Assembly: GCA_044869275.1 (NCBI GenBank)
Contig: JBIOXB010000034.1
Span: forward strand, 1 to 64,000
Source: a bacterium
GTDB lineage: Bacteria; Zhuqueibacterota; Zhuqueibacteria; Zhuqueibacterales; Zhuqueibacteraceae
Reading direction: 5' to 3'
DNA: 64,000 nt
Within the stretch, counting starts at the first letter, position 1; every line of letters begins with the position of its first letter. Of this stretch, positions 15,761 through 58,614 are shown one piece after another. The notes below the pieces were generated by a model. That model did not search any database. It was not told the origin of the DNA and worked only from the letters and a program-made list of their open reading frames with translations. A program made the position numbers and the translations under genes.

Positions 15761-15774
15761 AGGAATGGGGTGTA

Positions 15775-15906
15775 GGATTGTTGGATTATTGGATTGTTGG
15801 ATTGTTGGATTGTTGGATTGTTGGATTGTTGGATCGTGGCAATTCGAGCGCTTCAATAATCCAGCAATCCAGCAATCCAGCAATCCAGCAATCCAGCAAT
15901 CCAGCA
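15775..15906. repeat. Inverted octamer tandem arrays
   Basis: 7 x GGATTRTT, a short spacer, then AATAATCC plus 5 x AGCAATCC. Confidence 0.95.
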
Positions 15907-15958
15907 GTCGATTCCTCCTCCCGTTGGCGGCGCATTTTCTGGTTGGTAGTGGCGAAAC

Positions 15959-39600: not shown

Positions 39601-42116
39601 TCCGCTTCCACGCGAATGCCGCCGTCGCTCGCCCGCGGCGTTTCCACGGTGGCAGTCCCTTTGGTGACGGTGTAGATAACCGGTTTGCCCGTCACCGGAT
39701 TGTTGTCGGCGTCGATCAGTTTCACCACCAGCTCGTTTTCCAGCCGCTGTTCCACCGAGCCGATTTGATTGTCGCCGGAGATTTTGCTGAGATTGCTGGC
39801 TTCTTTGATGGGCACGGCAACGGTGAATTCTTCTATTGCATTTTCGGTGGGATTGACCAGGCCCTCGAGCATGAATCCGGCGAATTTGCCGTTTTCGAGT
39901 TTGGGAACATCTTCAAATATGCGATCTATCTCTCCATTTATATAAACCGTCAGGACGTACGTATCTGCTGCGAGGCCGGGGCTGTATTCCACAGAGATCA
40001 CCGCACCCGCTTGAGGCGCGATTTGGGATACCGAGTTTCTGTTTTCAATCTGATTCGTGATGACGCCATTCTGAACCAGGAAAAGCCCGATTTTGTCAAA
40101 TCCACCTTCGGGCGACAATCGCCGAATCAAATAACCCGTCGGTGTTGCGGAGGTATCTGCCATCACCAGAATTCCGAGATCGCGGCCGCCGGGAATGGTG
40201 ACTTCCGGGCCCAATTTCATCGAAATTTCCTGCACATTCTGTCGCGTTTTGAGCACGGCGAATTGCGTGCTGGTGCCCGGGTTCTGCGCCGTGCCCGCGG
40301 CCGCGCGTATGCTCGGTCCCGTGACCCAATCCTTGCCCAAGCCGGCGGTAGAAGTGCGTTCGAATTTGTCCGTCTTCACCGCGAGCGCGGCGGTTTTGAA
40401 CGGCGTCGCGCCGCCGGCGATTTTGGAGGCATTACCCACTTCATCCATCGCCTTGACCGCGACATAGTATTCCGTATTGCCTTCCAACCCGGTAATGGTA
40501 ATTGTTTCTTCACTGCCCGCGGAGCTGGGTGTTTTGATGCCGGCCGCACGTGGCGCCGCGCCGAAATTATTGGCCGTGATCGGCGCTTGCGAATAACGCA
40601 CGTCGTATGAGCTGGCAGCGCCGATGTTGCCGTCGTCGCCAGGAGCCGTAAACGTGATGGTAAGAGCAGACGAAGATGAGGCTTTGAGCTGCACATTGGT
40701 GATATCCCCGGGCGAAACCAGGTCGCTTTCAGTCGTGGCCACAAATTGATCAACGCCGTTGTTGGTAGCGCCGTTGATCATGACGCCGCTATACAACTTC
40801 GCGCCGCGGCCTTGCACACGATTGGGATCGCGCAGCGTGCTGGAATAAATGCCGTTGTTGGTATTGACCGTCACGGTAAATTTGTGACCTTGCTCATCGC
40901 GCGTGATCTCGACCTGGAATTGATCTCCCGGCTCCGGCGGGGGCGCGAGCGATTCGGTTTGGTCGATCAGGTTGCTTCCGGTCGTGCCATTGGTAACTTC
41001 ATAAAGCCGGAGTAATCCGGGATTTTGATCGGACTTGAAAAAGATCAGATACCCGCTCGCATCCGGCAGGTCCTTGTCCAGCATGACCGCCAGCCCGGTG
41101 AAAGCTCGACCGATGGCATCGGAATTCGAACCATATTCGAAACTGATCACGCGCGGATTGATGAGAGTCTTGGCGACAGCCATGAAATCGAAACTGTCTT
41201 CCGCAGAAGTATTCACCATCTGATTAGCTTGAATCATGATGGCAGCGTGGGCAGCCCAGGTGGTTGTTCCCAGGCTGGCACGTTGAAAGTCATCGGTGAA
41301 TTTTACCGGTGAAGGCGAGTGCCGCGCTTCGAGCGCGCTGAACCAAGACAAGGCGATTTCCTGATACCCGCGATCGGTGGGATGAATTTTGTCGTCCGGA
41401 TCAACTTTGTCCGCCGACAAATCCATGTCCACCAAGGTGACATCATAGCCGTTCGTTTTTTTCCCCGATACCAGGCCGATGAGCGCGTTGTTCAATTCCA
41501 CGACTTGCGGCTGTTTGTTGTCGGTGCGGGAAGACACCTCGCCCAGATAAATCTCAATCTGGCTATTGTAGTTGTAGATGTTGTCAAGAATGGCGCCAAT
41601 GGTGTTACGAATGGTTCCCGGCAGTACGCCGTCGGTGATGTCATTGGTGCCGATCATCAAAAACACGACTTGGGGCGGGTTGCTTTCCAAAAAGCGGCGC
41701 ACGTTATCGCGAATGAATGCGGCATTTTGGCCGGGCCAGCCTTCATGTTGTTTGTCAACCATGGAGTCGGGACCGGTGCTCAAGCTGCCCACGAAATCGC
41801 ACTGGAGATTATCGCTGGGATTGCCCGGTTGACCTGGAAAATAGAGATCCGTCAGCCAGGAGCGATAGCCGGCGTTGTCGGATGATTTCGCGCCTTCGGT
41901 AATGGAATCGCCTAAAGGCATGATGCGCAATTGCGCTTGGGCTTCACTCTGTATAAAAAGGCCAGCCCACAAGATCATCAGCCCGGTCGCGCGCCGGCTC
42001 AGCTTTTTTCCTGCCTGAAAAATTTTGCCAATCATGCTCGTCCCGCACGCTGCGTGCCCTCTTGCTTTCACGGTGCTGTGCTCCATGGTGTGATTCGCTT
42101 GCGAAAGTGAACTCAT
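33630..42116 (-). CDS. Giant secreted protein: SGNH hydrolase, FN3, CBM-like domains, many Ig-like (Big_1-type) repeats, T9SS/FlgD-Ig C-terminus
   Basis: IMPLGDSIT, GTND, DKIHP; recurrent SGDNQ/GNNQ Ig units; LSQNYPNPFNPTT...TKKMVLAK. Confidence 0.92.
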   Translation of the reverse strand: MSSLSQANHTMEHSTVKARGHAACGTSMIGKIFQAGKKLSRRATGLMILWAGLFIQSEAQAQLRIMPLGDSITEGAKSSDNAGYRSWLTDLYFPGQPGNPSDNLQCDFVGSLSTGPDSMVDKQHEGWPGQNAAFIRDNVRRFLESNPPQVVFLMIGTNDITDGVLPGTIRNTIGAILDNIYNYNSQIEIYLGEVSSRTDNKQPQVVELNNALIGLVSGKKTNGYDVTLVDMDLSADKVDPDDKIHPTDRGYQEIALSWFSALEARHSPSPVKFTDDFQRASLGTTTWAAHAAIMIQANQMVNTSAEDSFDFMAVAKTLINPRVISFEYGSNSDAIGRAFTGLAVMLDKDLPDASGYLIFFKSDQNPGLLRLYEVTNGTTGSNLIDQTESLAPPPEPGDQFQVEITRDEQGHKFTVTVNTNNGIYSSTLRDPNRVQGRGAKLYSGVMINGATNNGVDQFVATTESDLVSPGDITNVQLKASSSSALTITFTAPGDDGNIGAASSYDVRYSQAPITANNFGAAPRAAGIKTPSSAGSEETITITGLEGNTEYYVAVKAMDEVGNASKIAGGATPFKTAALAVKTDKFERTSTAGLGKDWVTGPSIRAAAGTAQNPGTSTQFAVLKTRQNVQEISMKLGPEVTIPGGRDLGILVMADTSATPTGYLIRRLSPEGGFDKIGLFLVQNGVITNQIENRNSVSQIAPQAGAVISVEYSPGLAADTYVLTVYINGEIDRIFEDVPKLENGKFAGFMLEGLVNPTENAIEEFTVAVPIKEASNLSKISGDNQIGSVEQRLENELVVKLIDADNNPVTGKPVIYTVTKGTATVETPRASDGGIRVEAESGVITGPIETRPDNEASRGSYVSYPNSASLDANVKLTFNITTAGSYRIWTRSRREETPYGVWSVRVDNGALFTYEVFQRGISQVWDWDLLTESNGTSFTTKVFNFTPGQHSIEFHAQRKETHLDKIIVTANTNFVPSGLEDPGFTTDADGFARAQVLVGSQAGEINISAKYGTLPAAVFKATASGGAAQSMAKTSGDAQTGTFGSTLSQPFTVTVQDAGGNTVANHKVSWVITGGDGKLSNYVSATDLNGKATTILTLGVLQTNNRVEARSVKQDGATSLGTIVFTATASGGQPAKMARTSGDGQTARIRTALPANVEARVTDTGGTTGVPNVPLKLTSQRGGGSLAANVSLLNPSFEANNGALPASWTGENSPANNEVSLSTTDPKAGALSLQVNASRAAEVGISQSAAYAANTNYILTFWAKVTTGSARVRWLLDNGAGGRTLDLHQSGSGNTWTKYRLIENNAQAGNRSLSFVTDGKASNFFIDDVQIVPATNSTGRLATSWTLGDTAGTQRIAISGISGGAILTGSPLVFTATAEAGAKAQLQAESGNNQVGSAGQPLPLPFVAKVADMTGVNGVANVDVTFRVTSIGTAAGKLEGNVSTKTVKTDIQGLASVTYTIGSGNNTPNTVEAAATGLNPDKVTFTATATVPGSFAIFGNSGQRATAGRPINPPLAVIVKTSDNKPIAGYPVKFEVVQGNGTINNKLAETIFTEVDGIARATLVCGTAANAVNQVRASATSNGANINGSPKTFSIRTYGLRNLRYESGDNQQGGVVGSFLAQPFVMSVVDSNNTKVPGQKVKFEVTAGGGSFEGGGASKEVTTDTSGRAPIRYLLGTQPIENRVTATITPALPGSPRVFRAVAQAAAPDSLIKVSGDSSRGVVGNLMPVPFVAKAGDRYGNGVAGIDVIFRVVSGGGSIGGQQRDTVTTQADGKAQITLTLGTSTTGGQFNNVVEARASNGSISLRNSPMRFYATATASRARAMLATTGNRQTGRAGSPLAQNFSVRVNDDKGNPVPEHAVAFRVTRGGGKFANGRSDSTVFTNATGVAALKLTLGGTVLPDSQIVTATSTDGVGPLTNSPLRFVAFARAGLPSQATSRVITSTGTALADGTTEVGVTVEVQDSFGNPVSGETVIIEVTNQPNDITQPVQQTNAQGRATGKFTSTKSGTKTVTAYIPGGIRITNGATVQFTPLNAARISPQGGNGQTGNLNTAVDVPLSVRVADRYGNGVLNHPVTFRLYSGAGKMSNGASNETVLSDGNGVARVFFIFGNTQGESQIRAEAQGLNGSPVGFFVNAVDLPARNLIYVSGNEQSGIAGETLAAPIVVKVADANGKAVFSRPVNFQVTFGNGALSASTVLTNEFGEAEATWTLGLQAGLNAVRASAEGLTGSPFDFSAQAIGGRACCVANAVPGDIVKGPVGGQSGPIQVRVVDALGNGVDGYTVDFELAQGTGVLTQTRVQTASGGFASTRLNFDNVSGYRKVRAVAGSLSGSPMTIMVYAQPAAAVSMNAVPRTNNQGGTIGKPLNFPLQVKLLDPFGNPAVGEAVNFVITSGGGALNGAGAAVTATSDSSGIAEASLTLGNSPGTNRVNAVKAGGNLIPALTFTATGFTNNFPIFVDVPDLRAIEEDRVEFTVTASDVDGDGMSFGARNLPPGAAFDSLATRTFSWKTNYNSAGMYEPEILVRDGKGGIDIEVVRITIGNRNRPPIILSRSPVGNADPVRADTTLIPGTDGVARFTMRVNARDEDPEDRLSYRWLQNGQIVGTNSNSFNFVGVLGLTYVQCFVSDGVDEVMTDWAMKVPVALSSFSASASAKAVTLHWVTNAEFNNIGFHVHRSLSAGGPYTRLTTQLIPPRLDGDYTFVDQTVEAGARYYYKLEDIDASGRSTLHGPVQALLALPENYELSQNYPNPFNPTTNIQFQMPKPGMVRLFVYNSLGQVVARLANGMREAGYHTVLWNGRDLHGNPVPSGVYHYRLEAEGYVMTKKMVLAK

Positions 42117-45474: not shown

Positions 45475-45930
45475 ATGCGAAATAAACTGCTTTATGGCGA
45501 CAATTTGGACGTTCTGCGAAAGGACTGATCGGAAAAGCGGTAAGGTTTATCGCTACTATTTAGACGAAGGAAAGATCGCCGAGGATTACTGGATAGATAT
45601 TGAAACCCTGAATCGAGAAGATAGAGAGCGTCTTGGATATCAAACTCAAAAGCCCGAAGCTTTGCTGGAACGTATTATCAAATCCAGCAGCAATGACGGC
45701 GATTTTGTCTTAGATGCTTATTGCGGCTGTGGCACGACCGTTGCAGTTGCTGAGAGACTAAAACGCAACTGGATTGAAATTGATATAGCCTATCAAAGCA
45801 TTAGCCTAATCTTGAAAGGATGAGACCGAAAAGGTGATTTCTCAAGTCAAGTCAGGCAGCGTCAATCGCGGAACGATAGCCACCTTGCGCGGTGACATGG
45901 AGCGCGAGAAAGCACAAATCGGTATAAGGA
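45475..45930 (+). pseudogene. DNA methyltransferase/restriction-domain fusion remnant
   Basis: MRNKLLYGDNLDVLRK / GYQTQKPEALLERII...DAYCGCGTT / QVKSGSVNRGTIATLRGDMEREKAQIG as three abutting pieces in different frames. Confidence 0.8.
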
Positions 45931-45951
45931 ATCAAAACATCACTGCAAAGG

Positions 45952-46614
45952 TCAACTCGCCTTGTATAAATCGGCGGGATCTCCGGCGAGTATCAGCGCA
46001 ATAATCTCTCTTTCACCGGGAAACTCCTGCGCAAATAGCCAATCCACACGCAGCCAGAAGCCAGGAATAACCGTGGAACGAACCACGCCCATATGGTCGA
46101 GAGGAATGTCTTTCCAACTACCACCACTGTTCTTCCAGAAGCTTGCGGTTTGCCGAAAGGCATCAATGACCCAGTATTCACGCACGCCGAACTTGGCGTA
46201 CAGCTCTTTTTTCTCCATCAAATCCAAACGCCGGCTACCAGGCGAGACGAGCTCGATGACAAGATCGGCGGGACCCTCCAAGGCTTTGCCTTTGCTTTGC
46301 GGCAGTTTGGCGTTGCTGATAAACATAATATCCGGCTCGGGTGCGTCGATTTCGGATAATTTCATGGCGGCGCGCGAACCCAACACGTGCCCGATTTTTT
46401 TCTCTCGAACGTAACCGCGCAAAAGCATTAGCAGGAACCCAAACAAATCTTCGTGCTCAAAGGTGGGTGGAGCAGCCATATAAATAACCCCATTGATAAG
46501 ATCGGCTTTTTGATCCTCACGAATGATCGTGCAAAACTCGTCGAAAGTGATCAGTTCTGGCGGCGGCGTTTGTCGCGGCAGAGGGCGAGTCAAAATACCA
46601 ACATCGATAGCCAT
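45952..46614 (-). CDS. Uma2 family endonuclease
   Basis: PEPDIMFI, PADLVIELVSPG, KKELYAKFGVREYWVID. Confidence 0.92.
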   Translation of the reverse strand: MAIDVGILTRPLPRQTPPPELITFDEFCTIIREDQKADLINGVIYMAAPPTFEHEDLFGFLLMLLRGYVREKKIGHVLGSRAAMKLSEIDAPEPDIMFISNAKLPQSKGKALEGPADLVIELVSPGSRRLDLMEKKELYAKFGVREYWVIDAFRQTASFWKNSGGSWKDIPLDHMGVVRSTVIPGFWLRVDWLFAQEFPGEREIIALILAGDPADLYKAS

Positions 46615-46722
46615 TTGTCTATGCTCTGTATTGAGTCCGTATTTTATTAAAAAGCCCCATTGCTAAAATAGCAATAAATTTCAAACAAACAAGCTGTACT
46701 TCAATACGAAGCCGGCACCGAT

Positions 46723-47343
46723 TTAAGTGCCGTTGTTTCCTCGAAAAATCCCCACCATCTCTCTTCCTCCCGGAATAAAAAAAAATTTTTGAAATGCGGG
46801 AAAAGTTTTGAATACTTGTGCCAGCGATTCTTCGCGGAAGCGCTCGCCGGAATAGGAGGAATCTTCTTTTGTTGGATGCGTCAATATCTGGCTGAGCTTG
46901 GCGAGCCAGGCCAGGCGCGAATCGGAAAGGTTGCGCACGGGCTCGGCGATGATCACTTTACGGCGCGCGGCGGCGAGCATTTTGGCCACAATCTCTTCGG
47001 CACGCGGCAGGAACTGATAAAGGCTGGCCTGCATCAGCACGATGTCCGCGCGCGGAATTTCATCCTGCCAGACATTGAAAACGCGCGCATTCACCCCGTG
47101 TTTTTGCGCCGCACGCACGAACGCTGGCGACAAGTCCAGACCGAGATACTTCACGGATTTCGCGCACAAATGCTGGCGATAAAGATAGCAATCCCCCGCG
47201 CACAGATCCACCACGGAAGATCCTTCCGGAATCTCGCTGGCAAGGGCACGATAACGTGCTGCAAAGTGGCGGCCGTATAACACGCGCATGAGCGCGCGAT
47301 AGAGGCGTTCATTGGAATAGATGAGCGAAACCGATGGCGACAT
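46723..47343 (-). CDS. Class I SAM-dependent methyltransferase
   Basis: VVDLCAGDC, YLGLDLSP. Confidence 0.8.
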   Translation of the reverse strand: MSPSVSLIYSNERLYRALMRVLYGRHFAARYRALASEIPEGSSVVDLCAGDCYLYRQHLCAKSVKYLGLDLSPAFVRAAQKHGVNARVFNVWQDEIPRADIVLMQASLYQFLPRAEEIVAKMLAAARRKVIIAEPVRNLSDSRLAWLAKLSQILTHPTKEDSSYSGERFREESLAQVFKTFPAFQKFFFIPGGREMVGIFRGNNGT

Positions 47344-47423
47344 GGTTGATCCATTCTAAAGCAATCGAAACAAGGCTTACTGAAAAAGCAAAGATTTCAC
47401 GCTTAGATTGAAAGGCGAAGCGC

Positions 47424-49271
47424 CTATTGCGTTCCCCCTGCTTGCACCACGGAGGGATCCCGAATATCGTAAATGCTAATAGTCGGGCGCTCTAGGAAGC
47501 CCATGCCCCAGGGATGCTGGTGCGCCGCGGGCGGCACGAATTCCTGCACTAGCCGGCCCTGCTCTTCTAGCTCGCTGTAAAACTCCTGCCACGATTTGGC
47601 CATTTCTGGATACTTGGCGCACGTGGCGGCGTCGAAGAACCTTCTCTTCAACAAACTGGAGCTGATCACAAAGTGCACCCCGCGCTCGCGGTAATATGCC
47701 AGCGGGCGGGCGCGCCATGTGGAAAAGTCAGGCAAGTTCTGCAAAACAGCGCGCATCGAATCCAGCGCGGCGAAGTCGAGCTGATAGTCGAACCCGTGGC
47801 GCAGAATCCAGGCACTCAGAGGATTTTGCAGCAGCGCCAGTTTCATGGACAGCTTTTTCCTGCTGGATTCCTCCGTGATGAGTTCCATTTGTGAGATGCT
47901 GAGTTGGCCCGGCGGTACCGGCGGCAGCATCCACGAGCCCGCGCGCATGGCGACGTTCGTTTCCCGGGGAATGTGGGCTTTGATCCAATCCGCCGCCTGT
48001 ACGCGCGTGTCTTCCTGCATTGCGATCCAGCACCACTGGCCGGCGTAATAAATCGACGGCGCAGAGAAGAGCAATGCCAGCGCGGTCGCAGCCCATGCTG
48101 TGGGCCATCTAAAGCGCGTGATCATTTCCGATGCGCGCGTGATAAAAATGCCGGCATAAATGCACCAAAACGGCAGTACCGGAATGAGATAGCGGTCAAC
48201 TTTGAGTGTGGCATTACCCATCAACAAATAAAAAAAGAACGGGAAACAGAGGAGCAGGAGGTCTCGGGTGCGGTGTTTCCACAGCGAGTACAGCATGCCG
48301 GCAAAAACTGCGCTCACCAACATCAATCCCAGCCCGCCGCTCGGCGTGACCGCGGTGAAATAGCCCCAGAAACCGGATTCTGGCACGCCGAGATGGCCGG
48401 ATTTGGAATGAAAGATCTGGGACAGCAAGCCGCTGGCGAAGCTTTTGAAATCGAGCAAGGCATACGGTGTTCCCACCAAAAAGCCCGCGGCCGCGCACAG
48501 GGAGAGGATAGGAATCGCACGAGAAAAAATCGCACGGCGCCAGGAGGCACCGGCCGCGCGCTGCCGCAGGACATGGGCGGCGAGCACCGTCAACAGAATC
48601 AGGCCCACGGGATATTTCGCCGACGCCGCCAAGCCGGCCACGAAGGCCGCCCAGTGAAGGCCGCCGGGCTTTCGGGTTTGATAAGCGCGCACACAGAGAT
48701 AATAAGCCCAGACGGCGAAAAAAGCGGAGGGCACATCCGTGGCGAGAAAATGCGAGTCCGTGAAATGCACGTAAGCGAAAGTCAAAAACCAGGCGGCGAC
48801 CAGCGCGACCGTTGCGTTCCAACATCGCCGCGCGGAAAGATAAGTGAAATACACGGTGGCGGCACCGAGCGTCGCCGCCAGCAGGCGGCCGAGCAAGTGA
48901 AAATAAAAAATGTTTTGTACAGCGTAATCATAAAATTGCGACAGACTTCCGATGCTGCCGCACGCGTGCAGCGCCATTCCTGTCATCAAATAAAGAAACG
49001 CCGTGAGGTATATGCAGAGCGAAGGATACTCAAAAAAATGAGGATTCAAATCGTACGCCGGGCTTTTGAGCATGTCCAAGGCTTTTTGCGCGATGAATTG
49101 CTCGTCGGGATGCAACACGTAAGGATGGCCGAACCAGGTTCCCCACACACGAATAGCGAGAGCCAGAGCCAGAATCACGAACAGTGCTCTGGGAGATTTT
49201 TTCGGCAACAAGGCAACTGCCGGTGCGGTGGCGGTGGCGTGAGCTTTAGGTAGAATCATGGTAAGAAACAT
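47424..49271 (-). CDS. GT-C (ArnT/PMT, family 39/83-like) glycosyltransferase
   Basis: LHPDE, HFFEYPSL, many TM helices, AASAKYP, RYLIPVLP. Confidence 0.88.
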   Translation of the reverse strand: MFLTMILPKAHATATAPAVALLPKKSPRALFVILALALAIRVWGTWFGHPYVLHPDEQFIAQKALDMLKSPAYDLNPHFFEYPSLCIYLTAFLYLMTGMALHACGSIGSLSQFYDYAVQNIFYFHLLGRLLAATLGAATVYFTYLSARRCWNATVALVAAWFLTFAYVHFTDSHFLATDVPSAFFAVWAYYLCVRAYQTRKPGGLHWAAFVAGLAASAKYPVGLILLTVLAAHVLRQRAAGASWRRAIFSRAIPILSLCAAAGFLVGTPYALLDFKSFASGLLSQIFHSKSGHLGVPESGFWGYFTAVTPSGGLGLMLVSAVFAGMLYSLWKHRTRDLLLLCFPFFFYLLMGNATLKVDRYLIPVLPFWCIYAGIFITRASEMITRFRWPTAWAATALALLFSAPSIYYAGQWCWIAMQEDTRVQAADWIKAHIPRETNVAMRAGSWMLPPVPPGQLSISQMELITEESSRKKLSMKLALLQNPLSAWILRHGFDYQLDFAALDSMRAVLQNLPDFSTWRARPLAYYRERGVHFVISSSLLKRRFFDAATCAKYPEMAKSWQEFYSELEEQGRLVQEFVPPAAHQHPWGMGFLERPTISIYDIRDPSVVQAGGTQ

Positions 49272-49623
49272 GAATGAGCAGAGCAGGGCGCGCGCGAAGC
49301 CCCAAGGATCAGAACGGACGTGTGCCCGGACAAATTTTAGCCGGGCCGTGCGGACTTTTCTTGCGGAAGCCCCGCCTTACCTAGTGATGATTTTTGCTAC
49401 CGCCCCTCAGCGCGCGATCGGAAGAATGTTTGCCCGGTTGGGCGAAGAATTCTCTCAAAGAAATACCGGCGTTAAACCCCGACTGCGTAAAACTTGAGCT
49501 TTGCAGGAACGACATGAACGAGGCCGCACGTTGATCGAAAACACACTCCTCCCAAAGCGACAAAGATTCCACGTGGGTGTTTTTGTTCGTGGGGGCTTTT
49601 GCAAAAAGTCAATAAATCCGGCG

Positions 49624-50448
49624 TCACTGCTGCAGACTATCCAATAATTTTCGGGCGGATTGATGGTAGAAATCGTGCGGCGGGCGGTGGAGGAGTTCTA
49701 ACAAGGCGCCTCTGGCCTCTTCGAGGTGCCGCTGCTGCAGATGAGCGTGTGCCAGAAACCAAAAGACTTCGGCGGGCGCCTCCTCCTTGGCCAAGGGGGA
49801 CAATCGCTGCACCGCTTTTTCAAACTTGCGATTTTGCAGCAGGACGATTCCCCACAGCATTTGGATTTGAGGCTCCTGCGGATAGTGGTTCGCGAAAAGC
49901 TCGAGCGAATCCGCGACGGCGGCAAACTGTGCTTTGCGATAGAGCGGGTAGAGCGTGTTGAGCCGTTGCCGCAAACGCGCATCGCTGATCGCGGGAAAAT
50001 CATCCGGCCAATCGAACGCCGGTGGAATGGGGGCGGAGCCGCCTTTCCCGGCGAGAAAAGCCTTGAAATTTGCGTCGTCGCCCGATTCGTGCAACGTTTT
50101 CTCGGCTTCGTGAAAGAGCCAGACAACAGTGGTCACGATCAAAATCAACGCGGCATAATTGAACGCGGGCCGCCACTTTCCCAAGCTCCAAGACAGCCTT
50201 TCGAAACCGTGCGCGAAACGATCGGCATACCTGGCCAGAATGCCGGCGTCGGGCGCATAGGCGGGCGCAAAAATATATTGGCCGTGCCGCTCCATCAGCA
50301 GCGCGGTTTTTTGCACCCACAGAACGTTATGCGCGCATTCGTCACAGCCTAAAAAATGAGCTTCAAAAGCTTCCTGTTCTTCGGGCGGCAGTTCTTCACG
50401 AACATAGGCCACGATTTTATCAAACTGGTTGCGATATGGGCACTTCAT
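49624..50448 (-). CDS. Anti-sigma factor: zf-HC2, TM helix, TPR-like C-terminal domain
   Basis: FEAHFLGCDEC (HxxxCxxC), YAALILIVTTVVWLF, VFWFLAHAHLQQ; immediately downstream of the ECF sigma gene. Confidence 0.85.
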   Translation of the reverse strand: MKCPYRNQFDKIVAYVREELPPEEQEAFEAHFLGCDECAHNVLWVQKTALLMERHGQYIFAPAYAPDAGILARYADRFAHGFERLSWSLGKWRPAFNYAALILIVTTVVWLFHEAEKTLHESGDDANFKAFLAGKGGSAPIPPAFDWPDDFPAISDARLRQRLNTLYPLYRKAQFAAVADSLELFANHYPQEPQIQMLWGIVLLQNRKFEKAVQRLSPLAKEEAPAEVFWFLAHAHLQQRHLEEARGALLELLHRPPHDFYHQSARKLLDSLQQ

Positions 50449-50472
50449 GAGAGTTTCAACTCCAGTTGTCGC

Positions 50473-51021
50473 TCAGCCATACAGACTTCTCAGGACGGGG
50501 TCTTTTAAACAGAGCTTGCGCAGCCGCTTCAGGGCATCGGATTTCAGGCTATACACCTTGTCCGGCGGCAGATTCAGTTGCTGCGCTACCTCTCCTTCCT
50601 TATACCCTTTGTAGAACACCAATTCCAAAACCTGGACATATTTCTTCGGCAGCAGCTTGAGTTTTTCGCGCAGATAGTATTTAAGCTCCCCGGCCTCGGC
50701 CTCGTCGCGAAACAGGGAGTCCATGCCCTCCGCATAGGTGAGCGGTGCGGTGCGGCGTTGCTGCCGGCCTTTTTTGCGGAAATGCGTTTGCGCCACCTTG
50801 GTGGCGATGCCGCATAGAAACGTGCTGGGCTCGGCTTCGTTGCGGCCTTCGTAGTTCTGGAAGCTGCGCAAAGCTGCCACCATCGTGTCCTGCGTCACTT
50901 CCTCCAAATCGTGGCCCTCCAGGCCCCATTTTTTTTGCAGAAAGAATTTTATGAATGGCCGGCGGCCGGCGATCCAATCGGGGTCGATATTTTTACCGGG
51001 CTTGGCGATAGCTCCTCCCAC
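50473..51021 (-). CDS. ECF sigma-70 factor
   Basis: LEEVTQDTMVAALRS, TFLCGIA, LPKKYVQVLELVFYKGYKEGEVAQQLNLP. Confidence 0.88.
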   Translation of the reverse strand: MGGAIAKPGKNIDPDWIAGRRPFIKFFLQKKWGLEGHDLEEVTQDTMVAALRSFQNYEGRNEAEPSTFLCGIATKVAQTHFRKKGRQQRRTAPLTYAEGMDSLFRDEAEAGELKYYLREKLKLLPKKYVQVLELVFYKGYKEGEVAQQLNLPPDKVYSLKSDALKRLRKLCLKDPVLRSLYG

Positions 51022-51324
51022 CTCCAGTTTACATTGAGACTCGCGCAGCGCACAGATGCAGGCTTTTGTATAATTTTGAAAAAAATATGTGAGAAATCAA
51101 CCTCTGTTTTCGTCTATATGAGCAGAGAGAAGAAACAGGCGACACTCAGGGGCCCAGATTTGGCGCTTCGCCTTCCTTCACGGAATCGGGAAGAACAGGA
51201 GTGCACACGAGTGTCGATCTGATTTAGCTCGGCAATTTCAATCTATCACGACGCGCCGAGCTGCAGTCGGCCGGCTGTTCTGCATGTCAGGCAATTCAAC
51301 TCTTATCCGGAAAGGATAACAAAC

Positions 51325-51510
51325 ATGCGAACAGTCATGTCTTTCTTGCTGGTGTTGTTGTTTGCGCTGCTGGCCGGGTGTGAAACTTACGCGCCCACCG
51401 CGCCGAACAACGAGAAGAAACCTGCTGTGCAAAGCGACAGGATCAATGAAGAATGCGGTACGTGCGGCAATCCTCCTCCTCCGGGCAGCGGTGGTGGTGG
51501 AGGTGGTTGA
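51325..51510 (+). CDS. Small lipoprotein with CxxC and Pro/Gly tail (61 aa)
   Basis: AAGGA RBS, lipobox LAGC, C-terminus EECGTCGNPPPPGSGGGGGG, own terminator. Confidence 0.8.
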   Translation: MRTVMSFLLVLLFALLAGCETYAPTAPNNEKKPAVQSDRINEECGTCGNPPPPGSGGGGGG

Positions 51511-51559
51511 TTCCCGTCACAACTCGTCGGCTTCATTATTGGTGATTGGTTTCTTCATG

Positions 51560-51594
51560 CGACTCCGCCGTTTATCCCGGCGGAGTCGTATTTT
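51560..51594 (+). terminator. Terminator after the small lipoprotein gene
   Basis: 11-bp stem CGACTCCGCCG / CGGCGGAGTCG followed by TATTTT. Confidence 0.7.
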
Positions 51595-51781
51595 ACTAAC
51601 TTGCTTCTCATATTATTGCTTGCCTTCAGAATTCTTTTTCATAATCTTGCGCCAACTTATTCTCTTCCTCCGGGCGGCGGTGGTTGATGCCGTTAACGCA
51701 CTCGCTGCGGGCATTCGCAGTACTTCACTTCGTCGAGCGACTCTGCTGCTGAAAATGGCGGAATCGAGTTTTTACAGCGGT

Positions 51782-51875
51782 TGTCATTCTGGGAGAAGCT
51801 TCTCTCAGCTAGGGCATAAAGGCCCGTTGCGCAGATAGTGCCCGGTACTTGGGAAGATTCTTTCTGAGAATGACA
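51782..51875. repeat. Degenerate REP-like inverted pair
   Basis: TGTCATTCT... / ...AGAATGACA ends with partly complementary interior. Confidence 0.5.
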
Positions 51876-51895
51876 GGACGCGGGCCACGATGGCA

Positions 51896-54800
51896 TTACC
51901 CTTGTAACAATTTTGCTTTTCTATTTTTTCGCCCAAACAGCATACTACCCGCCATCAGCAAAATCGCTATAATCGCGGCCAGCGCTATCCAATCTCTTGC
52001 ACCCCACGGCAGGGGCAGTTCTACGCGCCAATCGCGGCCGTAATAAGCAAATGCGGCCCAATCGGTGAAATCATAATTGGGGTGATTCAGTATTTCGAGC
52101 TTCGCGGTTTGCAGGGCAGCCACGGTTGATTGTCCAGCGCGCAATGCTTGGTAGTAGGCTTTGAAAAACTCCGCTGTGGAATAATCATCGACTTTCCACA
52201 AGCTGGCGATCATGCTCGGCGTGCCGGCGGCGCGAAAAGCCTGCACAAAACCCTCAAAGCCCTCGCTTTCCACGAATGTGCCGCGCACAGTTTCGCATCC
52301 GCTCAAAACCGCTATTTTCACCGGCAAGCTCATTTGAAAAATCTCAAACGCAAAAAGCCTTTCCGGCTCACTCATACCGCGTGGCGTGGACAAAAGGATT
52401 TCGCCGAACAAGGGCTCGGCCGACTGCCAAAAACTATGGCTGGCAATGTGCAGCCAGTCGCTTTGATGCATAGCGGGCAGCAGGGATTTGCGTGTGAGCT
52501 TAGCGCCGGTCAAATCCGTCTGGCACTTCACCAAACGGCGTATCATTTCGGCTTCCAATTCACCTACCGTTCCTCTCGGCCAACGCGCATTGCGTGGATT
52601 TGAACCGTTGGAGTTTTCGGACTGCAATACCGGTGCGGCTGCCAGCAAGAATGATTGTACCCGCAAATCATCCTGCTCTTCTTGTTGCAAATCAGCAAGC
52701 GTGCTGCCGTAGCGCACTGCAAAGCGTTCAATCAAAAAGAACGCATCGCTCCGCTCTGTCGAGGTGAGCGGCAAGATTTCAAAAGGCAGAGCATGCAAAA
52801 CGCCGTCTGGCACGAGGGACAAAGTGGTTTCCTTGCGTTCCGCCAGAAAATCTTGCAGCAGCAGGCGATAGAGACGGCGCGCCGCAACGGTATCAAATTT
52901 AGCCACGCTTTCCCTAATGGCGTCGGCATTCTTGGTGTTCATGCCTTTGTGAATATCCAGCAGTTGTTGCTCCAGCGCATGACGGCCTACAGCAACGGAA
53001 GCTGCGCGCAGCGTATCCGCCGCGATGAAAAAGACCAAAGTCGAGGAATCACCCACAAAGAAGGTGAGCACCATTTCTCGGCGCGCGCGTAGATTCCGGC
53101 GAAAATCATGAATGGGAAAGGGAGGTGCGTCCAGCCAAAGCGCGGCATTCATGCCGAGCACACTGTCTTGCAAAGCTGCATGCTGGCGCTCCCAGGTCGC
53201 AATTTTTGTGGCCAAACCAATTTGGAATTCCGGCGAATCCGCAACTGCTTTTTGCACACGCGCCTTTTGTAGAAGAGAATCCAACATCGCGAGCTGGCAG
53301 GCTTTTGCGCTGTCTGTTGGCGCGTGACGAAGCTGTTGCACCTGCCAGCGCCTGCGCTTGACAATCAAATCGCGCGCCCGTTCGGTTTCAGCCAAAGCCC
53401 GCTCGACCTGACCATTCTTCACATAAGCCTGGCTTAGGCCGAAAAAGATTTCGCGTTCGACACTTGATAAGGAAGACAGATGCTGGGGGCCGAAGCGGTG
53501 CGTTTGCGTCATGGTGGTTCTTGCAGCGTCTTCATATATTTTAATGGCTTCTGCACGTTGCCCGGTTTGCCAGGCAATCTCCGCAAGCAATGAGAGAATT
53601 CTTAAATTCGTTTCATACGCTGGTGTCTCTCGTATGGTTGCCAGTGCGTGGGCTAATCTATGTTTGGCTTGGCCATACTGTTGCGCGCCCATTTCGATTT
53701 GCGCGAGCAATATTTGCGCGAGCATAAATGGCGTCATCAGGTTGGCATTTTTCGCTGCAATAGTTGATTCTGACAACAACGCATGCGCTCGGTGAGCTTG
53801 ACCGAGACGCATCGCAATTTCACCACGCAAAAGCTTCAACTTCAGCAACTGCTCGAAATTAGGTTTTTTTTGTGCGAGCTCCTGTGCCTGTTCGCAATAG
53901 TTTAGTGCTTCGGAGTACCTTCCTAGTGCAGTTAAGAAGGAAGCGAGATTCTGACAGCCGAAAGAGAAATACGAATCCAAATTTCGACTACGCACATAGG
54001 TCATGGCTTTCTGCGCAATTTCGAGCGCTTGAATTTTGCGGTCTGCCTCAAATTCAATTAGGGCGAGATCAAACAAAAGGGAGGCTGCGCTATCTTTTAG
54101 GCCCACAGAATCAGCGATCTCAAAAGCCCTATGTGCATAAGCCAGCGCATCGTTCCTTTTCCCTCTCTCAAGAGCCAATTCTGAAAGATAATCGTAGGCG
54201 TGAAACAACAACTCGCCATCGAGATATTGTCTGGCACGCTGAGCAGCAGTCGTCAAAGTTTGCTCCGCTTTCGACCATTGGTGCTGCTGAAGCTGGATCT
54301 GGCCCAGAAGCAACATCAGCCGGCCTTCCCATACCCGATTACCAATCCTATGCGCCGATTCGAAACCTTGCTCAAGCGTTGCAATTGCTTTCTGCCATTT
54401 CCCCAGCTTAAGTTCAGCCTGAGCACGGCCATGCAACAAACGCGCTCTACCTTCTTCATCCTTTGCGACTTGGCAATGGGCGAGGCCATCTTCATGTACA
54501 TTCTTCGCTTCCTGCCAGGATTCTAGATTTCCAAGGTTATATCCAAGAGCATAGTATATGCGCCAATGACGGTCGTTGTTTGCGAGCAGAGCGCGCAGAG
54601 TATCACGGGCCAATTTGAAATCGTTATTTTTAGAATGGCACAACGCCAAGGCAAAAACCTGCCGCCAATTTCTATGATGCTGTTGGTACTGCCGCCGCAG
54701 CAGCTCGAACGCGGCCGCGCTGTCCTTGAGCTCAAAGCTTTTATTGACGAAGATTTCGTAGGGATAGACGCAGTGGCTGTTTTCAACCACGGCCAGCCGT

Positions 54801-55291
54801 GCGTATCGCAAGCTGCTATCGGGTCTTTGCTGCGATTCCCACAGAATGGCATGGCCGCCCGCTATGTCGCCTTGCCAATGCTTCGCCGCCAGCAAAGAAT
54901 CAAAAAACACATGTCCCGCCGCAAATCTCCTTTCATAAACAAAAACATAAGCTGCGGTTTCGTACAAGGGTGGATATATTTCTTCTTTGCGAAGCAGGCT
55001 GTCAATGCGCGCATGCGCCTCGGCGAAATCGCCCCGGCCCATGGCATAACGGACTTCCAAATAGTCGCGCGGCACCTGCAGGTCTTTCGCCGGACCTTCT
55101 TGCTTCGCCTGGCCCAAGTCTGCCAGCAGCAAAAGAATGATCACGGCGGTGCATGCCGGTCCGGGGAGGCCATGGGCGCGGCTGCGAACGGGCAGTGATT
55201 TTTTGACAAGGATGAGAGTCATTCTGCGGCAAATACATCTTCGCTTTCCGAGCAGCGCCCTAGGGAGAGGCAAGACTGCAAAACCTAACAC
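51896..55291 (-). CDS. TPR-CHAT protease 2
   Basis: VPDGVLHALPFE, WLHIASH, VLSGCET, SLWKVDD, WAAF; N-terminal hydrophobic segment and C-terminal TM; start uncertain. Confidence 0.92.
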   Translation of the reverse strand: MLGFAVLPLPRALLGKRRCICRRMTLILVKKSLPVRSRAHGLPGPACTAVIILLLLADLGQAKQEGPAKDLQVPRDYLEVRYAMGRGDFAEAHARIDSLLRKEEIYPPLYETAAYVFVYERRFAAGHVFFDSLLAAKHWQGDIAGGHAILWESQQRPDSSLRYARLAVVENSHCVYPYEIFVNKSFELKDSAAAFELLRRQYQQHHRNWRQVFALALCHSKNNDFKLARDTLRALLANNDRHWRIYYALGYNLGNLESWQEAKNVHEDGLAHCQVAKDEEGRARLLHGRAQAELKLGKWQKAIATLEQGFESAHRIGNRVWEGRLMLLLGQIQLQQHQWSKAEQTLTTAAQRARQYLDGELLFHAYDYLSELALERGKRNDALAYAHRAFEIADSVGLKDSAASLLFDLALIEFEADRKIQALEIAQKAMTYVRSRNLDSYFSFGCQNLASFLTALGRYSEALNYCEQAQELAQKKPNFEQLLKLKLLRGEIAMRLGQAHRAHALLSESTIAAKNANLMTPFMLAQILLAQIEMGAQQYGQAKHRLAHALATIRETPAYETNLRILSLLAEIAWQTGQRAEAIKIYEDAARTTMTQTHRFGPQHLSSLSSVEREIFFGLSQAYVKNGQVERALAETERARDLIVKRRRWQVQQLRHAPTDSAKACQLAMLDSLLQKARVQKAVADSPEFQIGLATKIATWERQHAALQDSVLGMNAALWLDAPPFPIHDFRRNLRARREMVLTFFVGDSSTLVFFIAADTLRAASVAVGRHALEQQLLDIHKGMNTKNADAIRESVAKFDTVAARRLYRLLLQDFLAERKETTLSLVPDGVLHALPFEILPLTSTERSDAFFLIERFAVRYGSTLADLQQEEQDDLRVQSFLLAAAPVLQSENSNGSNPRNARWPRGTVGELEAEMIRRLVKCQTDLTGAKLTRKSLLPAMHQSDWLHIASHSFWQSAEPLFGEILLSTPRGMSEPERLFAFEIFQMSLPVKIAVLSGCETVRGTFVESEGFEGFVQAFRAAGTPSMIASLWKVDDYSTAEFFKAYYQALRAGQSTVAALQTAKLEILNHPNYDFTDWAAFAYYGRDWRVELPLPWGARDWIALAAIIAILLMAGSMLFGRKNRKAKLLQG

Positions 55292-55293
55292 GA

Positions 55294-58200
55294 CTATTTA
55301 TTATGAAATTTGATTTCGTGTTTTCTTAGTCTGACAGCCACTTGCCAACCGGCCAAAAACAGAACCACAATCATTCCCGCCAGCACCAGCGCTTCCTTTA
55401 TGCCCCACGGCGCCGGCAGCTGCACACGCCAGTCGCGGCCATAATAAGCAAACGCGGCCCAATGCGTGAAATCATAATTGGGGTTAGCCAGCATCTCGAG
55501 CTTCGCGGTTTGCAGCGCGCGCATGGTGGATTGCCCGGCGCGCAAAGCTTTATAGTAAGCTCTGAAGAATTCTGAAGTGGGAAAGTCATCGACCTTCCAC
55601 AAGCTGGCGATCACACTGGGCGCGCCCGCGGCGCGAAATGCCTGCACAAAGCCTTCAAAGCCCTCACTGTCCACGAACGTGCCGCGCACGGTCTCGCATC
55701 CGCTCAATACCGCCATTTGCACCGGCAGCGCCATTTGAAAAATTTCAAAAGCAAAAAGCCGTTGCGGCTCGCTCCTTCCCGGCGGCGTGACCAAATCGAT
55801 CTCGCCGAACAGAGGCTCGGCCGGCCGCCAGGTGCAGTGGCTGGCAATATGCAGCCAATCGCTCTGCTGCATTGCCAGCAACAAAGAGTCACGCGTGAGA
55901 TTTGCGCCGGCCAGATCCGTTTTGCATTGCACCATACTGCGAATGATTTCGGCTTCCAAATGGCCCACGGTTCCCGCCCGCCGGTCGGCATCGCGCTGTG
56001 CGATCAAGCCATTTGTCTCCGCCGGCGGCGCGGCCGGCGCGGCCGCCAGCAAGAACGATTTCACCGGCAAATAATCCTGCCCGTCTTGTTGCAAATCCGT
56101 TAGCGTGCTGCCGTAGCGCACGGCAAAACGCTCGACCAAGAATGGCGCGCGGCCTTGTCCTGAACTGAGCGTCAGGATTTCAAACGGCAGGGCATGCAAA
56201 GCGCCATCCGGAACGATGGCCAGCGCGGTTTCAGGCCGCTGCTCGAGAAAGTCTTGCAGCAGCAGACGATAAAGATCATGGGCCGCTGCCGTATTGAGCT
56301 GCATTTTTCCCCGCGCCAGCGGTTCGGCATGTCCGGTACTCATGCCTGCATGAATGCGCAGCAACCCCTGCTCCAAGCTTCGGCGTCCAATGGCAATGGC
56401 TGCGAACTGCAGGGTGTCGGGCGCGAGAAAAAAGACCAGAGTAGAAGAGTCTCCCACAAAAAAGCTGAGCGCGATCTCCTGGCGGGAATTCAGGCTGCGG
56501 CGAAAGTGGCTGAGGTCAAAAGGAAGCGTCTCAAGCCAGGGCTTCACGGCACCTTGCACGGCCTGTTGCTGGCGCTCCCCTTCTGCAATTTTCGCCGCCC
56601 AATCGAGCTGGAGCGAAGTCGAATTCGTGGCCGCTCTCTGCAAGCGTGCTTCTTGCAGCATGGCATCGAGGCTGGCGAGCTTGCGGATTATCGTGCTATC
56701 CCTTGAGGCATGAGCGAGCTGCTGCGCATGCCAGCGTTTGCGCTTGACGATCAGATCACGCGCCCGCTCGGTCTCGACCAAGGCGCGTGCAATCTGCCCC
56801 ATCTCGGCATAGGCACGGCTCAAACTAAAAAAGACTTCACGCTCGACTCGCGACAAGGAAGACAGATGCTCCGACCCAAAGCCCGGCATTTGCGCAAGGA
56901 TGATTTTGAGCGCATCTTCATATACTTTGAGTGCCTGCGGCCGTTCTCCGGTCCGCCACGCGATCTCAGCAAACAACGCGAGCATTCTCAGGTTCGTTTC
57001 ATAGGCCGGTGTTTCAGGCAATGCCGCCAAGGTGCCGGCCAATCTTTGTTTCGCCTGGCGGTATTGTCCGGCACCCATCTCTCTTTGTGCAAATAGTATT
57101 TGTGCTTCGGTAAACGCCGCCATCAGCCCGGCATGCCGTGCTGACTCGGCCGCTTCGGCCAAGAGCGCGCGCGCTTCGCGCGTGCGTTTCAGAGGAAATA
57201 AAATTTTGGCGCGCAGCAATTTCAAATTCAACAATTGTTCGGCATTATTTCTTTTTCCCGCCAAACGCTGTGCTGCTTCGCAATGCAACAAGGCTTCTGG
57301 GTGTTTTCCCAGCAGATCCAAATTGCAGGCCAGATTTTGATGAAGATAAGGCAATTGCCAATCCAGCCCGTGGGCCAGTGCATATTGCAAGGCTTCTTGC
57401 AAGAGCTCGAGCGCTTGCGCTTCGCGGCCGGCGGACAATTCAATGAGCGCGACACGTTGTATGAGCGATCCGGCGTAGGTCTTCATGCCCAGAGAATCGG
57501 CAACGTGATAGGCCATATACGTATATTGGAGCGCTTCGCTCCTCTTGCCAATATTGTCGGCCAATTGCGACAAGTAATAATAGGCATGCAGCAAGAGATC
57601 GCCCAGGGCATAGTTCCGGGCGCACTGGACGACGGCCTCGAAAGTTTGCCGCGCCTGCAACCATTGCTGCTGCTTGAGTTGAATCTCGCCCAGCAAAGAA
57701 AGCAGCCAGCCTTCACGCAAACGATTGCCGATGCGGCGCGTCAAATCCAAGCCCTGCTGCAAAGTCGCCACCGCCGCTTGCCACTGTCCCAATGCCTGTT
57801 CTGCCTGGGCGCGGCCGTATAACAACCGCACCTTCCCCTCCTCGTCATTCACCTGGTCACAATAAGCAAGGCCTTCATCATAAGCCCTCTTTGCTTCCTG
57901 CCAAGAGGCGGTGAGCCACAAGCCCTGTCCCAAAGAAAAATAAATTCGCCAATGCCTGATATTGCTCGCAAGCAGAGCACGCAAGGTATCCACTGCTACT
58001 TTGTGCTGGCTGTGCAGGGAATACCATGAAGCGATGGCATAAGCCAGCCGCCAGTTTTCCGGACGCTGCGGGCGCCATCGCTGCAGGAGCTCAAGTGCCG
58101 CCTGGTTACTTTTACACTCGAAACTCTTCTCCACAAAGATTTCGTAGGGATAGACACACTGGCTGTTTTCGAGCACGGCCAGCCTGGCGTACTTCACGGT

Positions 58201-58614
58201 GCTGTCTGGCCGCTGCTGCGTGAGCCAAAGAATGGCGTGACCGCCAGCGACATTGCCTTGATGGTGCCCGGCCGCCAGTAATGAATCAAAGAACGCATGC
58301 CCGGCGACGAATCTTCGTTGGTAAACGTAAATATAAGCCGTAGTCTCGTAGAGAGGGGGATAGACATCTTTTTCCTGGAGCAGGCGCACCGTCAGTCGAT
58401 GCGCTTCGGCGTAGTCGCCTCTTCCCATGGCTAAACGAACCTGGGGGTAGGTTTGGGGCATTTGCTGCTCCCGCGCCGCGCTGGGGCTGCCGGCGGACAA
58501 AGCGCAAACCGCGAGGGCAATGGCTGCCGGTTGGCGCAGAAACAGGATACACCTCGCCCTGGGGTTAGGTGCGCTGGTAGAATCGGAAATCCTTGGGGAA
58601 ATGGCACTGATCAT
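55294..58614 (-). CDS. TPR-CHAT protease 1
   Basis: VPDGALHALPFE, WLHIASH, VLSGCET, SLWKVDD, HWAAF; signal-like N-terminus and C-terminal TM. Confidence 0.92.
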   Translation of the reverse strand: MISAISPRISDSTSAPNPRARCILFLRQPAAIALAVCALSAGSPSAAREQQMPQTYPQVRLAMGRGDYAEAHRLTVRLLQEKDVYPPLYETTAYIYVYQRRFVAGHAFFDSLLAAGHHQGNVAGGHAILWLTQQRPDSTVKYARLAVLENSQCVYPYEIFVEKSFECKSNQAALELLQRWRPQRPENWRLAYAIASWYSLHSQHKVAVDTLRALLASNIRHWRIYFSLGQGLWLTASWQEAKRAYDEGLAYCDQVNDEEGKVRLLYGRAQAEQALGQWQAAVATLQQGLDLTRRIGNRLREGWLLSLLGEIQLKQQQWLQARQTFEAVVQCARNYALGDLLLHAYYYLSQLADNIGKRSEALQYTYMAYHVADSLGMKTYAGSLIQRVALIELSAGREAQALELLQEALQYALAHGLDWQLPYLHQNLACNLDLLGKHPEALLHCEAAQRLAGKRNNAEQLLNLKLLRAKILFPLKRTREARALLAEAAESARHAGLMAAFTEAQILFAQREMGAGQYRQAKQRLAGTLAALPETPAYETNLRMLALFAEIAWRTGERPQALKVYEDALKIILAQMPGFGSEHLSSLSRVEREVFFSLSRAYAEMGQIARALVETERARDLIVKRKRWHAQQLAHASRDSTIIRKLASLDAMLQEARLQRAATNSTSLQLDWAAKIAEGERQQQAVQGAVKPWLETLPFDLSHFRRSLNSRQEIALSFFVGDSSTLVFFLAPDTLQFAAIAIGRRSLEQGLLRIHAGMSTGHAEPLARGKMQLNTAAAHDLYRLLLQDFLEQRPETALAIVPDGALHALPFEILTLSSGQGRAPFLVERFAVRYGSTLTDLQQDGQDYLPVKSFLLAAAPAAPPAETNGLIAQRDADRRAGTVGHLEAEIIRSMVQCKTDLAGANLTRDSLLLAMQQSDWLHIASHCTWRPAEPLFGEIDLVTPPGRSEPQRLFAFEIFQMALPVQMAVLSGCETVRGTFVDSEGFEGFVQAFRAAGAPSVIASLWKVDDFPTSEFFRAYYKALRAGQSTMRALQTAKLEMLANPNYDFTHWAAFAYYGRDWRVQLPAPWGIKEALVLAGMIVVLFLAGWQVAVRLRKHEIKFHNK

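Follow-up and report, generated by a model that had tools for sequence, protein, structure and literature searches.

The DNA analysed here, referred to as the window, comprises 64,000 nucleotides of contig JBIOXB010000034.1, from an uncultured bacterium. The element of interest is a block of five genes within it: two tandem genes for putative proteases that combine tetratricopeptide repeats (TPRs) with a caspase-like CHAT domain, a sigma factor of the extracytoplasmic function (ECF) type, a zinc-type anti-sigma factor and a small lipopeptide. All five open reading frames (ORFs) had been reported in a preliminary description and were recovered where it had placed them, with domains assigned by Pfam and the transmembrane (TM) segment by hydropathy. 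Its view that the block stands between unrelated genes and away from cas genes also holds: oxoacid:ferredoxin oxidoreductase genes lie on one side and a PMT-type glycosyltransferase gene on the other, no array of the CRISPR type was seen in the window, and the cas1 and RAMP genes of the source genome sit on a separate contig, C154. PADLOC gave no match among the four block proteins scanned, a set that did not include the lipopeptide. The lipopeptide gene is divergent from the sigma gene and convergent with the second CHAT gene. The features of the block are as follows.

55294-58614, minus strand: TPR-CHAT protease 1 (CHAT1), 1106 residues; Pfam CHAT and TPRs, E = 1.6e-50.
51896-55291, minus strand: TPR-CHAT protease 2 (CHAT2), 1131 residues; Pfam CHAT and TPRs, E = 1.7e-52.
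50473-51021, minus strand: ECF sigma factor, type A; sigma70 regions 2 and 4 (Pfam), sigma2 and sigma4 only.
49624-50448, minus strand: anti-sigma factor; Pfam zf-HC2 (E = 9.4e-8) and TPR; CHCC zinc domain, one TM segment, linker and three-TPR outer domain.
51325-51510, plus strand: lipopeptide gene, 61 residues; hydrophobic N-terminus, LAGC lipobox (Cys19), Pro24, variable linker, tail with a Pro-run and a Gly-run.
51088-51115, plus strand: promoter-like bipartite motif A, TGTGA-N18-CGTC, pointing at the lipopeptide gene.
51263-51278, plus strand: palindromic hairpin with a GGCC loop in the presumed 5' untranslated region (UTR); conserved, its 3' arm shared with the anti-start stem.
51273-51336, plus strand: RNA stem over the start of the lipopeptide gene (anti-start stem; 51273-51286 paired with 51324-51336), which takes in the start codon and codons 2-4.
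51557-51591, plus strand: terminator-like hairpin of 14 bp, 3' of the lipopeptide gene.
51601-51687, plus strand: degenerate second peptide copy with a hydrophobic stretch and a Pro-Pro-Gly4 end, lacking the lipobox Cys and an ATG; repeat D6, 88% identity over 26 nt.

CHAT1 and CHAT2 are 60% identical, and their CHAT domains score 172.6 and 179.1 bits against a Pfam cut-off of 24. The catalytic dyads are His926/Cys973 in CHAT1 and His952/Cys999 in CHAT2; all of 13 orthologues keep the His926/Cys973 pair unchanged, and constraint on the protein is strongest in the catalytic region. Each sequence begins with a signal-like segment (the likely start of CHAT2, judging from the sequence, being the ATG at 55222) and ends with a TM segment, at 1076-1094 in CHAT1 and 1102-1120 in CHAT2, followed by a basic tail. 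From this hydropathy profile alone, both are predicted to be exported enzymes that are C-terminally anchored and face outwards, a topology that would place them on the same side of the membrane as the outer domain of the anti-sigma factor. An AlphaFold model of CHAT1 (mean predicted local distance difference test score, pLDDT, of 76.9, falling below 50 in the catalytic loops) gave as its best structural matches Csx29 of the type III-E CRISPR system (PDB code 8eey, the top match), DdvA, a CHAT-bearing anti-sigma factor of Myxococcus xanthus (second), and separase. A sequence search of the PDB with the CHAT domain alone returned no matches, and the TPR region matched NprR and RapF/J weakly (E values of 1e-9 to 3e-6). 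Ratios of nonsynonymous to synonymous substitution (dN/dS) of 0.12-0.18 indicate purifying selection on both copies. In a quick tree, in which one sequence (L077) is not aligned at the catalytic columns, the two are sisters with an approximate likelihood-ratio support (SH-aLRT) of 86. Since no second orthologous CHAT was seen in 28 orthologue loci (14 genomic and 14 metagenomic, several of them incomplete) and the copies are sisters, the tandem is best explained as a local duplication; it was seen in the source genome only and is not the feature of the system for which it had been taken.

In the anti-sigma factor, the CHCC residues C3, H31, C35 and C38 are invariant in 10 of 10 sequences and there is one hydrophobic segment, 94-112. 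The model consists of a zinc three-helix bundle followed by a TM helix, a linker of low confidence (∼119-139) and three TPRs; across 12 long anti-sigma factors this linker varies freely except for a Trp near the first TPR. A fold search returned generic three-TPR domains only, none at E ≤ 0.001 (best E = 1.5e-3), and DdvA was absent among the matches listed, so that homology between the TPR cap and the DdvA scaffold is not supported. No longer homologue fusing the anti-sigma factor to a CHAT domain was found at E ≤ 0.001 among 3070 candidates, which is weak evidence. The source genome encodes the intramembrane protease RseP on contig C230.

Across 18 lipopeptide sequences, Cys19, Pro24, Pro52-53 and Gly58 never vary, and no residue of the linker is fixed. 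With dN/dS values of 0.07-0.31 in seven of seven pairs (one of them involving genome G001), the lipopeptide is, on sequence criteria, a real gene. Among its members the Pro-runs are often preceded by Asp, which is not kept in the source-genome peptide, and a CxxC motif is present in some and absent from many. A profile search of 125 genomes of the class gave matches in 20. Those with E below 1e-7 all lay at known CHAT loci, a largely circular result because those loci had seeded the profile; four weak matches (E values of 3.6e-6 to 8.6e-4) were parts of longer proteins, and the single match outside the seed set (genome G114) was a lipoprotein with a Pro-run, encoded immediately upstream of a CHAT gene. 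The profile found no second intact copy in the source genome, where a remnant is present; second copies occur in G001, G003, G008 and L180. Against 1.84 billion representative sequences the profile gave 31 matches, three of them long repetitive proteins, and a search of the ESM Atlas with the lipopeptide was uninformative (best score 0.82). Related peptides with Asp-Pro, Pro-run and Gly elements and other N-termini are found upstream of paralogous CHATs in five or six of 19 loci, three of which (L080, L082 and L083) have no sigma factor nearby; several paralogous loci have a peptide gene that lies upstream of the CHAT gene and points the same way.

The preliminary description had staked its proposal on conserved synteny, and the block proves to be kept across one KSB1 family, in 14 genome and 14 metagenome loci. 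Full-length CHAT orthologues are present in 14 of the 18 other genomes of the family. The lipopeptide gene adjoins the CHAT 3' end in 13 of these 14 loci; in the remaining one a contig end interrupts the locus, and the peptide, sigma and anti-sigma genes stand at the start of another contig. The ECF and zinc anti-sigma genes adjoin CHAT in nine of the 14, with contig ends interrupting three loci. The 14 metagenome loci hold the peptide in 13 cases, a sigma factor in ten and a zinc anti-sigma factor in nine, with both of the latter in nine. The constant partner of the CHAT is the lipopeptide. The loci fall into two types, of which type A, that of the window, has sigma A, a long TM-containing anti-sigma factor and motif A, whereas type B, seen in genus g2 and in six metagenome loci, has a different sigma factor, a soluble zinc anti-sigma factor of ∼69 residues and motif B, TCAAG-N16-CGAC. 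The sigma factors of the two types share 28-32% identity.

Twelve of the 14 type A loci carry motif A, at a distance of 221-254 nt upstream of the lipopeptide gene, and none of the 13 type B loci does; motif B is found in 12 of 13 type B loci, the 13th being incomplete, and in none of type A. As both motifs were derived from these same alignments, the counts are descriptive and not an independent test, the informative part being their mutual exclusivity. The motif pointing at the lipopeptide gene thus changes with the type of the adjacent sigma factor, which supports the earlier proposal that the sigma factor transcribes this gene, the only conserved candidate sigma target at the locus; that the type A sigma factor recognizes motif A is quite likely. 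A genome-wide scan with motif A gave ten matches, at or below the chance estimate (∼25), and no regulon was therefore drawn.

A conserved UTR motif, whose 3' part forms one arm of the anti-start stem, is present in 14 of 14 type A loci and in no type B locus. In the anti-start stem, 99.2% of 132 cells are paired and two pairs show two-sided change, a level of covariation reached by none of 500 shuffles, although in 5-25% of cases sequences that are related may clear such a control; slid controls gave 13-46%. The codons NCA GTC are fixed in 11 of 11 lipopeptide genes because the stem pairs there. The GGCC-loop hairpin is 97% paired with only G-U wobble changes, shows no two-sided change and did not beat its shuffles; the arm that it shares with the anti-start stem makes two alternative folds possible. 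Rfam gave a single chance-level match over 50900-52000 (E = 2.8). A reading of the palindrome as a DNA operator was set aside, the substitutions keeping G-U pairs on the mRNA strand.

The association of CHAT with sigma factors extends beyond this family. In the source genome, five of ten CHAT loci have an ECF gene and a zinc anti-sigma gene within 10 kb, against a chance expectation of ∼5% (18 zinc anti-sigma genes in 6.67 Mb), so the clustering is not due to chance. A further 40 loci of the phylum were picked by open-frame length only (950-1260 residues, in listed order, skipping loci already examined) and searched with purpose-built profiles; 29 have an ECF gene within 5 kb and 20 have both an ECF and a zinc anti-sigma gene. 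Outside KSB1, an ECF gene and a gene for a TM-TPR protein stand beside CHAT in eight of 16 loci, with unconfirmed candidates in one more. The sigma/anti-sigma/CHAT trio is widespread, and the peptide is confined to certain subfamilies.

Several other CHAT loci were recorded alongside these. Three more in the source genome pair an ECF factor and a zinc anti-sigma factor with an exported CHAT (C14:83232-90897, C222:4599-9464 and C255:9250-16498), the C14 locus having two tandem CHATs as well and an anti-sigma factor with a non-TPR outer domain. On contig C75, small exported-peptide genes are divergent from a paralogous operon of ECF, zinc anti-sigma and CHAT lipoprotein genes (52235-56941, plus strand): three tandem ORFs of 18-20 residues at 51356-51894 (minus strand) share the leader MKVKTN[VI]KAG and differ in their cores, and are followed by genes named by eye as peptide-exporter-like ATP-binding cassette (ABC) and HlyD-like (45836-51266, minus strand). 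A CRISPR locus that contains cas1 and long multi-RAMP genes (frames of 628-838 residues) has a CHAT-domain gene ∼8 kb upstream of it (C154:11694-41370). A second subfamily of C-anchored TPR-CHATs (L070, L071, L074, L084, L085 and L088) stands beside a ∼390-residue single-TM protein with no Pfam match; another neighbour has Pro-rich motifs, and two of the loci have a highly divergent sigma-like ORF nearby. Two C-anchored TPR-CHATs without the catalytic His, one of them also without the Cys, lie downstream of a conserved membrane-protein gene (L069:6949-10281 and L087:6934-10272) and are probable pseudo-proteases. A double-CHAT protein of ∼2750-2830 residues (C152:17512-22881 and relatives) occurs in most genomes of the phylum sampled.

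These data suggest a circuit in which the membrane anti-sigma factor would hold the ECF sigma factor, which, once freed, would transcribe the divergent lipopeptide gene, with the RNA stem over the start codon further damping translation. The lipopeptide would be tethered outside the inner membrane and present its Pro-run/Gly-run tail to the C-anchored TPR-CHAT, turning the protease on. As a site-1 protease acting in trans, the CHAT would then cut the unstructured linker that joins the anti-sigma TM helix to the TPR cap, after which RseP would cut within the membrane and release the sigma factor, closing an autoinducing loop. Contact between peptide and CHAT is fairly probable, and we infer that its sign is activating. 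Cleavage of the anti-sigma factor by CHAT falls a little short of an even prospect; if it occurs, the linker is the plausible place for it by analogy with DdvA, being the sole unstructured stretch of the protein and lying before the TPRs, and not in the outer TPR domain to which the cut had previously been assigned. The complete sequence of events, in which the sigma factor makes the peptide, the peptide gates CHAT, CHAT clips the linker and RseP finishes, is proposed only tentatively.

A number of observations weigh against this circuit. No conserved cut-site candidate is found in the linkers of the 12 long anti-sigma factors, and the TPR cap is shortened in three of them. The Gly that follows the catalytic His is replaced (by Cys or Ser in the block), as is common among related CHATs. 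The anti-sigma factor beside CHAT is the soluble ∼69-residue form in three genome loci, where its true stop was checked, and six metagenome loci, all of one genus-level group; such a protein is out of reach of an exported CHAT, and a cascade in which CHAT cleaves the neighbouring anti-sigma factor, as first envisaged, is therefore not universal. In seven genomes of g2, sigma A and the long anti-sigma factor are encoded elsewhere and the flanks of ∼1.5 kb contain neither a CHAT nor a peptide gene, so that cleavage in trans is possible there. In G004 and G001 (an unpublished genome) the sigma and anti-sigma genes are unlinked from CHAT and peptide. A Pro-rich small exported ORF passed the filter in none of the 40 unselected phylum CHAT loci, which makes the lipopeptide subfamily-specific. 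Kin genomes are not independent, and some metagenome loci may be from the same organisms as others.

Other wirings have to be set against these facts. CHAT may cut the lipopeptide itself and so shed its tail as a signal, or it may act on some other protein of the envelope. The role of the sigma pair would then be confined to supplying the peptide, and the anti-sigma factor would be switched in some other way, such as capture of the released tail by its three-TPR cap. This would account for the way in which CHAT and peptide move as a unit with different sigma pairs or with none, for the soluble anti-sigma factors, which cannot be CHAT substrates, and for the Pro-rich peptides upstream of paralogous CHATs that lack a nearby sigma factor, and the cap does bear a weak resemblance to peptide-binding three-TPR domains. 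However, the peptide linker offers no invariant residue for a cut site, and anti-sigma factor and CHAT are paired much more widely where no such peptide is present (20 of the 40 loci) and are fused in DdvA. We regard this wiring as rather unlikely. Alternatively, the proposed wiring could be kept with the peptide acting in the manner of securin, holding CHAT off until its loss or mislocalization frees the protease and negative feedback restores the supply. Pro-runs, often after Asp, suit an uncleavable pseudo-substrate of the securin type, separase, the protease that securin regulates, is among the top structural matches, and the peptide gene is the one conserved candidate target of the sigma factor; but the source-genome peptide lacks an Asp ahead of its Pro-run, and both the divergent copies of the peptide gene in tandem and the peptides linked to transporters at C75 look more like signals. 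An inhibitory peptide is given a low probability.

Two further possibilities dispense with one of the proposed activities. The CHATs could serve chiefly as receptors without catalysis, or as steric caps protecting the anti-sigma factor from RseP or another site-1 protease, as the altered His-Gly motif might suggest; in the available text on DdvA (PMC11506125), RseP is kept out by the bulky domain and repression persists in dyad mutants. A catalytic region that is the most constrained part of the protein, with His and Cys invariant in all 13 orthologues, makes this improbable. The lipopeptide could, on the other hand, be a CutF-like arrest leader acting in cis (signal peptide, CxxC, C-terminal prolines) on a downstream gene. 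Three of the CutF-like filters of PMC9973294 fit, some members have the CxxC and the peptide gene precedes a co-directional CHAT in several paralogous loci. Many members, however, lack CxxC, no same-strand gene lies within 1000 nt downstream of the lipopeptide gene, which is followed by the terminator-like hairpin, the degenerate copy and the convergent CHAT2, and the orthologue loci have no conserved same-strand gene downstream; control of this kind is very improbable.

If correct, the proposed circuit would give diderm bacteria a form of peptide autoinduction that relies on caspase-like proteolysis. More generally, exported TPR-CHATs might be peptide receptors, in which a self-made, lipid-tethered peptide with a Pro/Gly tail, itself under a sigma factor and an RNA switch, gates a sigma-releasing caspase-like protease, a generalization that we consider doubtful at present. 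It would supply the class of signal that is missing for DdvA-type sensors: DdvA is the sole characterized CHAT-bearing anti-sigma factor, and in the available text of PMC11506125 neither its signal nor CHAT cleavage is proven. The split architecture makes the protease, the proposed substrate and the candidate ligand separately expressible and mutable, and the promoter motif is a ready reporter. As exported TPR-CHATs beside ECF genes are very common (29 of the 40 phylum loci, and Bacteroidota loci too), settling one case would annotate a large uncharacterized class.

Elsewhere in the window, a sugar-modification cluster is broken up at 45494-46614 by a fragment of a DNA methyltransferase (109 residues) and a gene resembling those for Uma2 endonucleases, a tandem array of an 8-nt repeat is followed by its inverted counterpart (15758-15907), and a 2828-residue exported protein, read by eye, has an SGNH-like N-terminus, many immunoglobulin-like repeats and a C-terminal sorting-type domain (33630-42116).

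No account of the split form or of the lipopeptide was found in the literature searched, outside which subscription journals largely lie. The block recalls the RRNPP receptors NprR and Rap in setting a TPR superhelix beside a small exported peptide gene, the matches amounting to generic TPR similarity. Those receptors are cytoplasmic and have DNA-binding or phosphatase outputs, unlike the CHATs of the window. ECF54 of Actinobacteria has a conserved neighbouring TPR-CHAT gene with a proposed regulatory role, and the accessible part of the supplement to PMC7826278 gives no anti-sigma factor for it. Compared by gene context and motif, ECF54 has subtilase and carboxypeptidase-regulatory neighbours and a GTATCAG / CTCC promoter, whereas the window block has an anti-sigma factor, no subtilase and another motif. 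With the CutF-like leaders, as far as the available text of PMC9973294 describes them, the lipopeptide shares a length below 150 residues, a signal peptide, a PP within the last 15 residues and, in some members, the CxxC; it differs in its predicted lipid anchor and in an RNA stem that covers its own start and not that of a downstream gene.

The preliminary description had looked to type III-E Craspase, in which Csx29 cleaves Csx30, an inhibitor of CASP-sigma (PMC10028731, in the part available). The likeness lies in the TPR-CHAT fold and in a protease, a sigma inhibitor and a sigma factor resembling the ECF type, encoded in one locus. In contrast to Craspase, however, the window locus has no Cas7-11 or array, its protease is predicted to lie outside the cytoplasm, its anti-sigma factor is of the membrane zinc type and its sigma factor scores 31.4 bits against the CASP-sigma model NF041236, below the cut-off of 100. 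A closer precedent, with the same domains fused, is the DdvA/DdvS pair of M. xanthus (PMC11506125 and PMC6061681, each in its available part). DdvA joins an ECF-inhibiting zinc domain, a TM segment and a TPR-CHAT region in one chain, with the CHAT domain in a resting state and its active site facing the linker after the TM segment; RseP degrades DdvA once the TPR-CHAT region is removed, and autoproteolysis is proposed there, with cleavage by CHAT unproven, which counts as a further reservation about the circuit. Fused forms of this type are, according to the same text, found almost only in Myxococcota. DdvA-like anti-sigma factors are further marked by a dimer in which each active site faces the linker of the other chain, and by a missing three-helix motif. 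Common to both systems are an ECF factor, a CHCC zinc domain, a single TM segment, a flexible linker, TPRs, an extracytoplasmic CHAT (predicted in the present case) with a His-Cys dyad, and the availability of RseP. Because its proteins are not fused, the window system is not a DdvA/DdvS member: the anti-sigma factor and the TPR-CHATs are separate ORFs, and the CHATs have their own signal-like N-terminus and C-terminal anchor. The window locus also contains no genes of CRISPR or of the cyclic-oligonucleotide-based antiphage signalling system (CBASS), although it may regulate such a defence island in trans, and it has a dedicated lipopeptide with a structured UTR. With DdvA/DdvS as its closest precedent, the system is best described as a split form of that pair.

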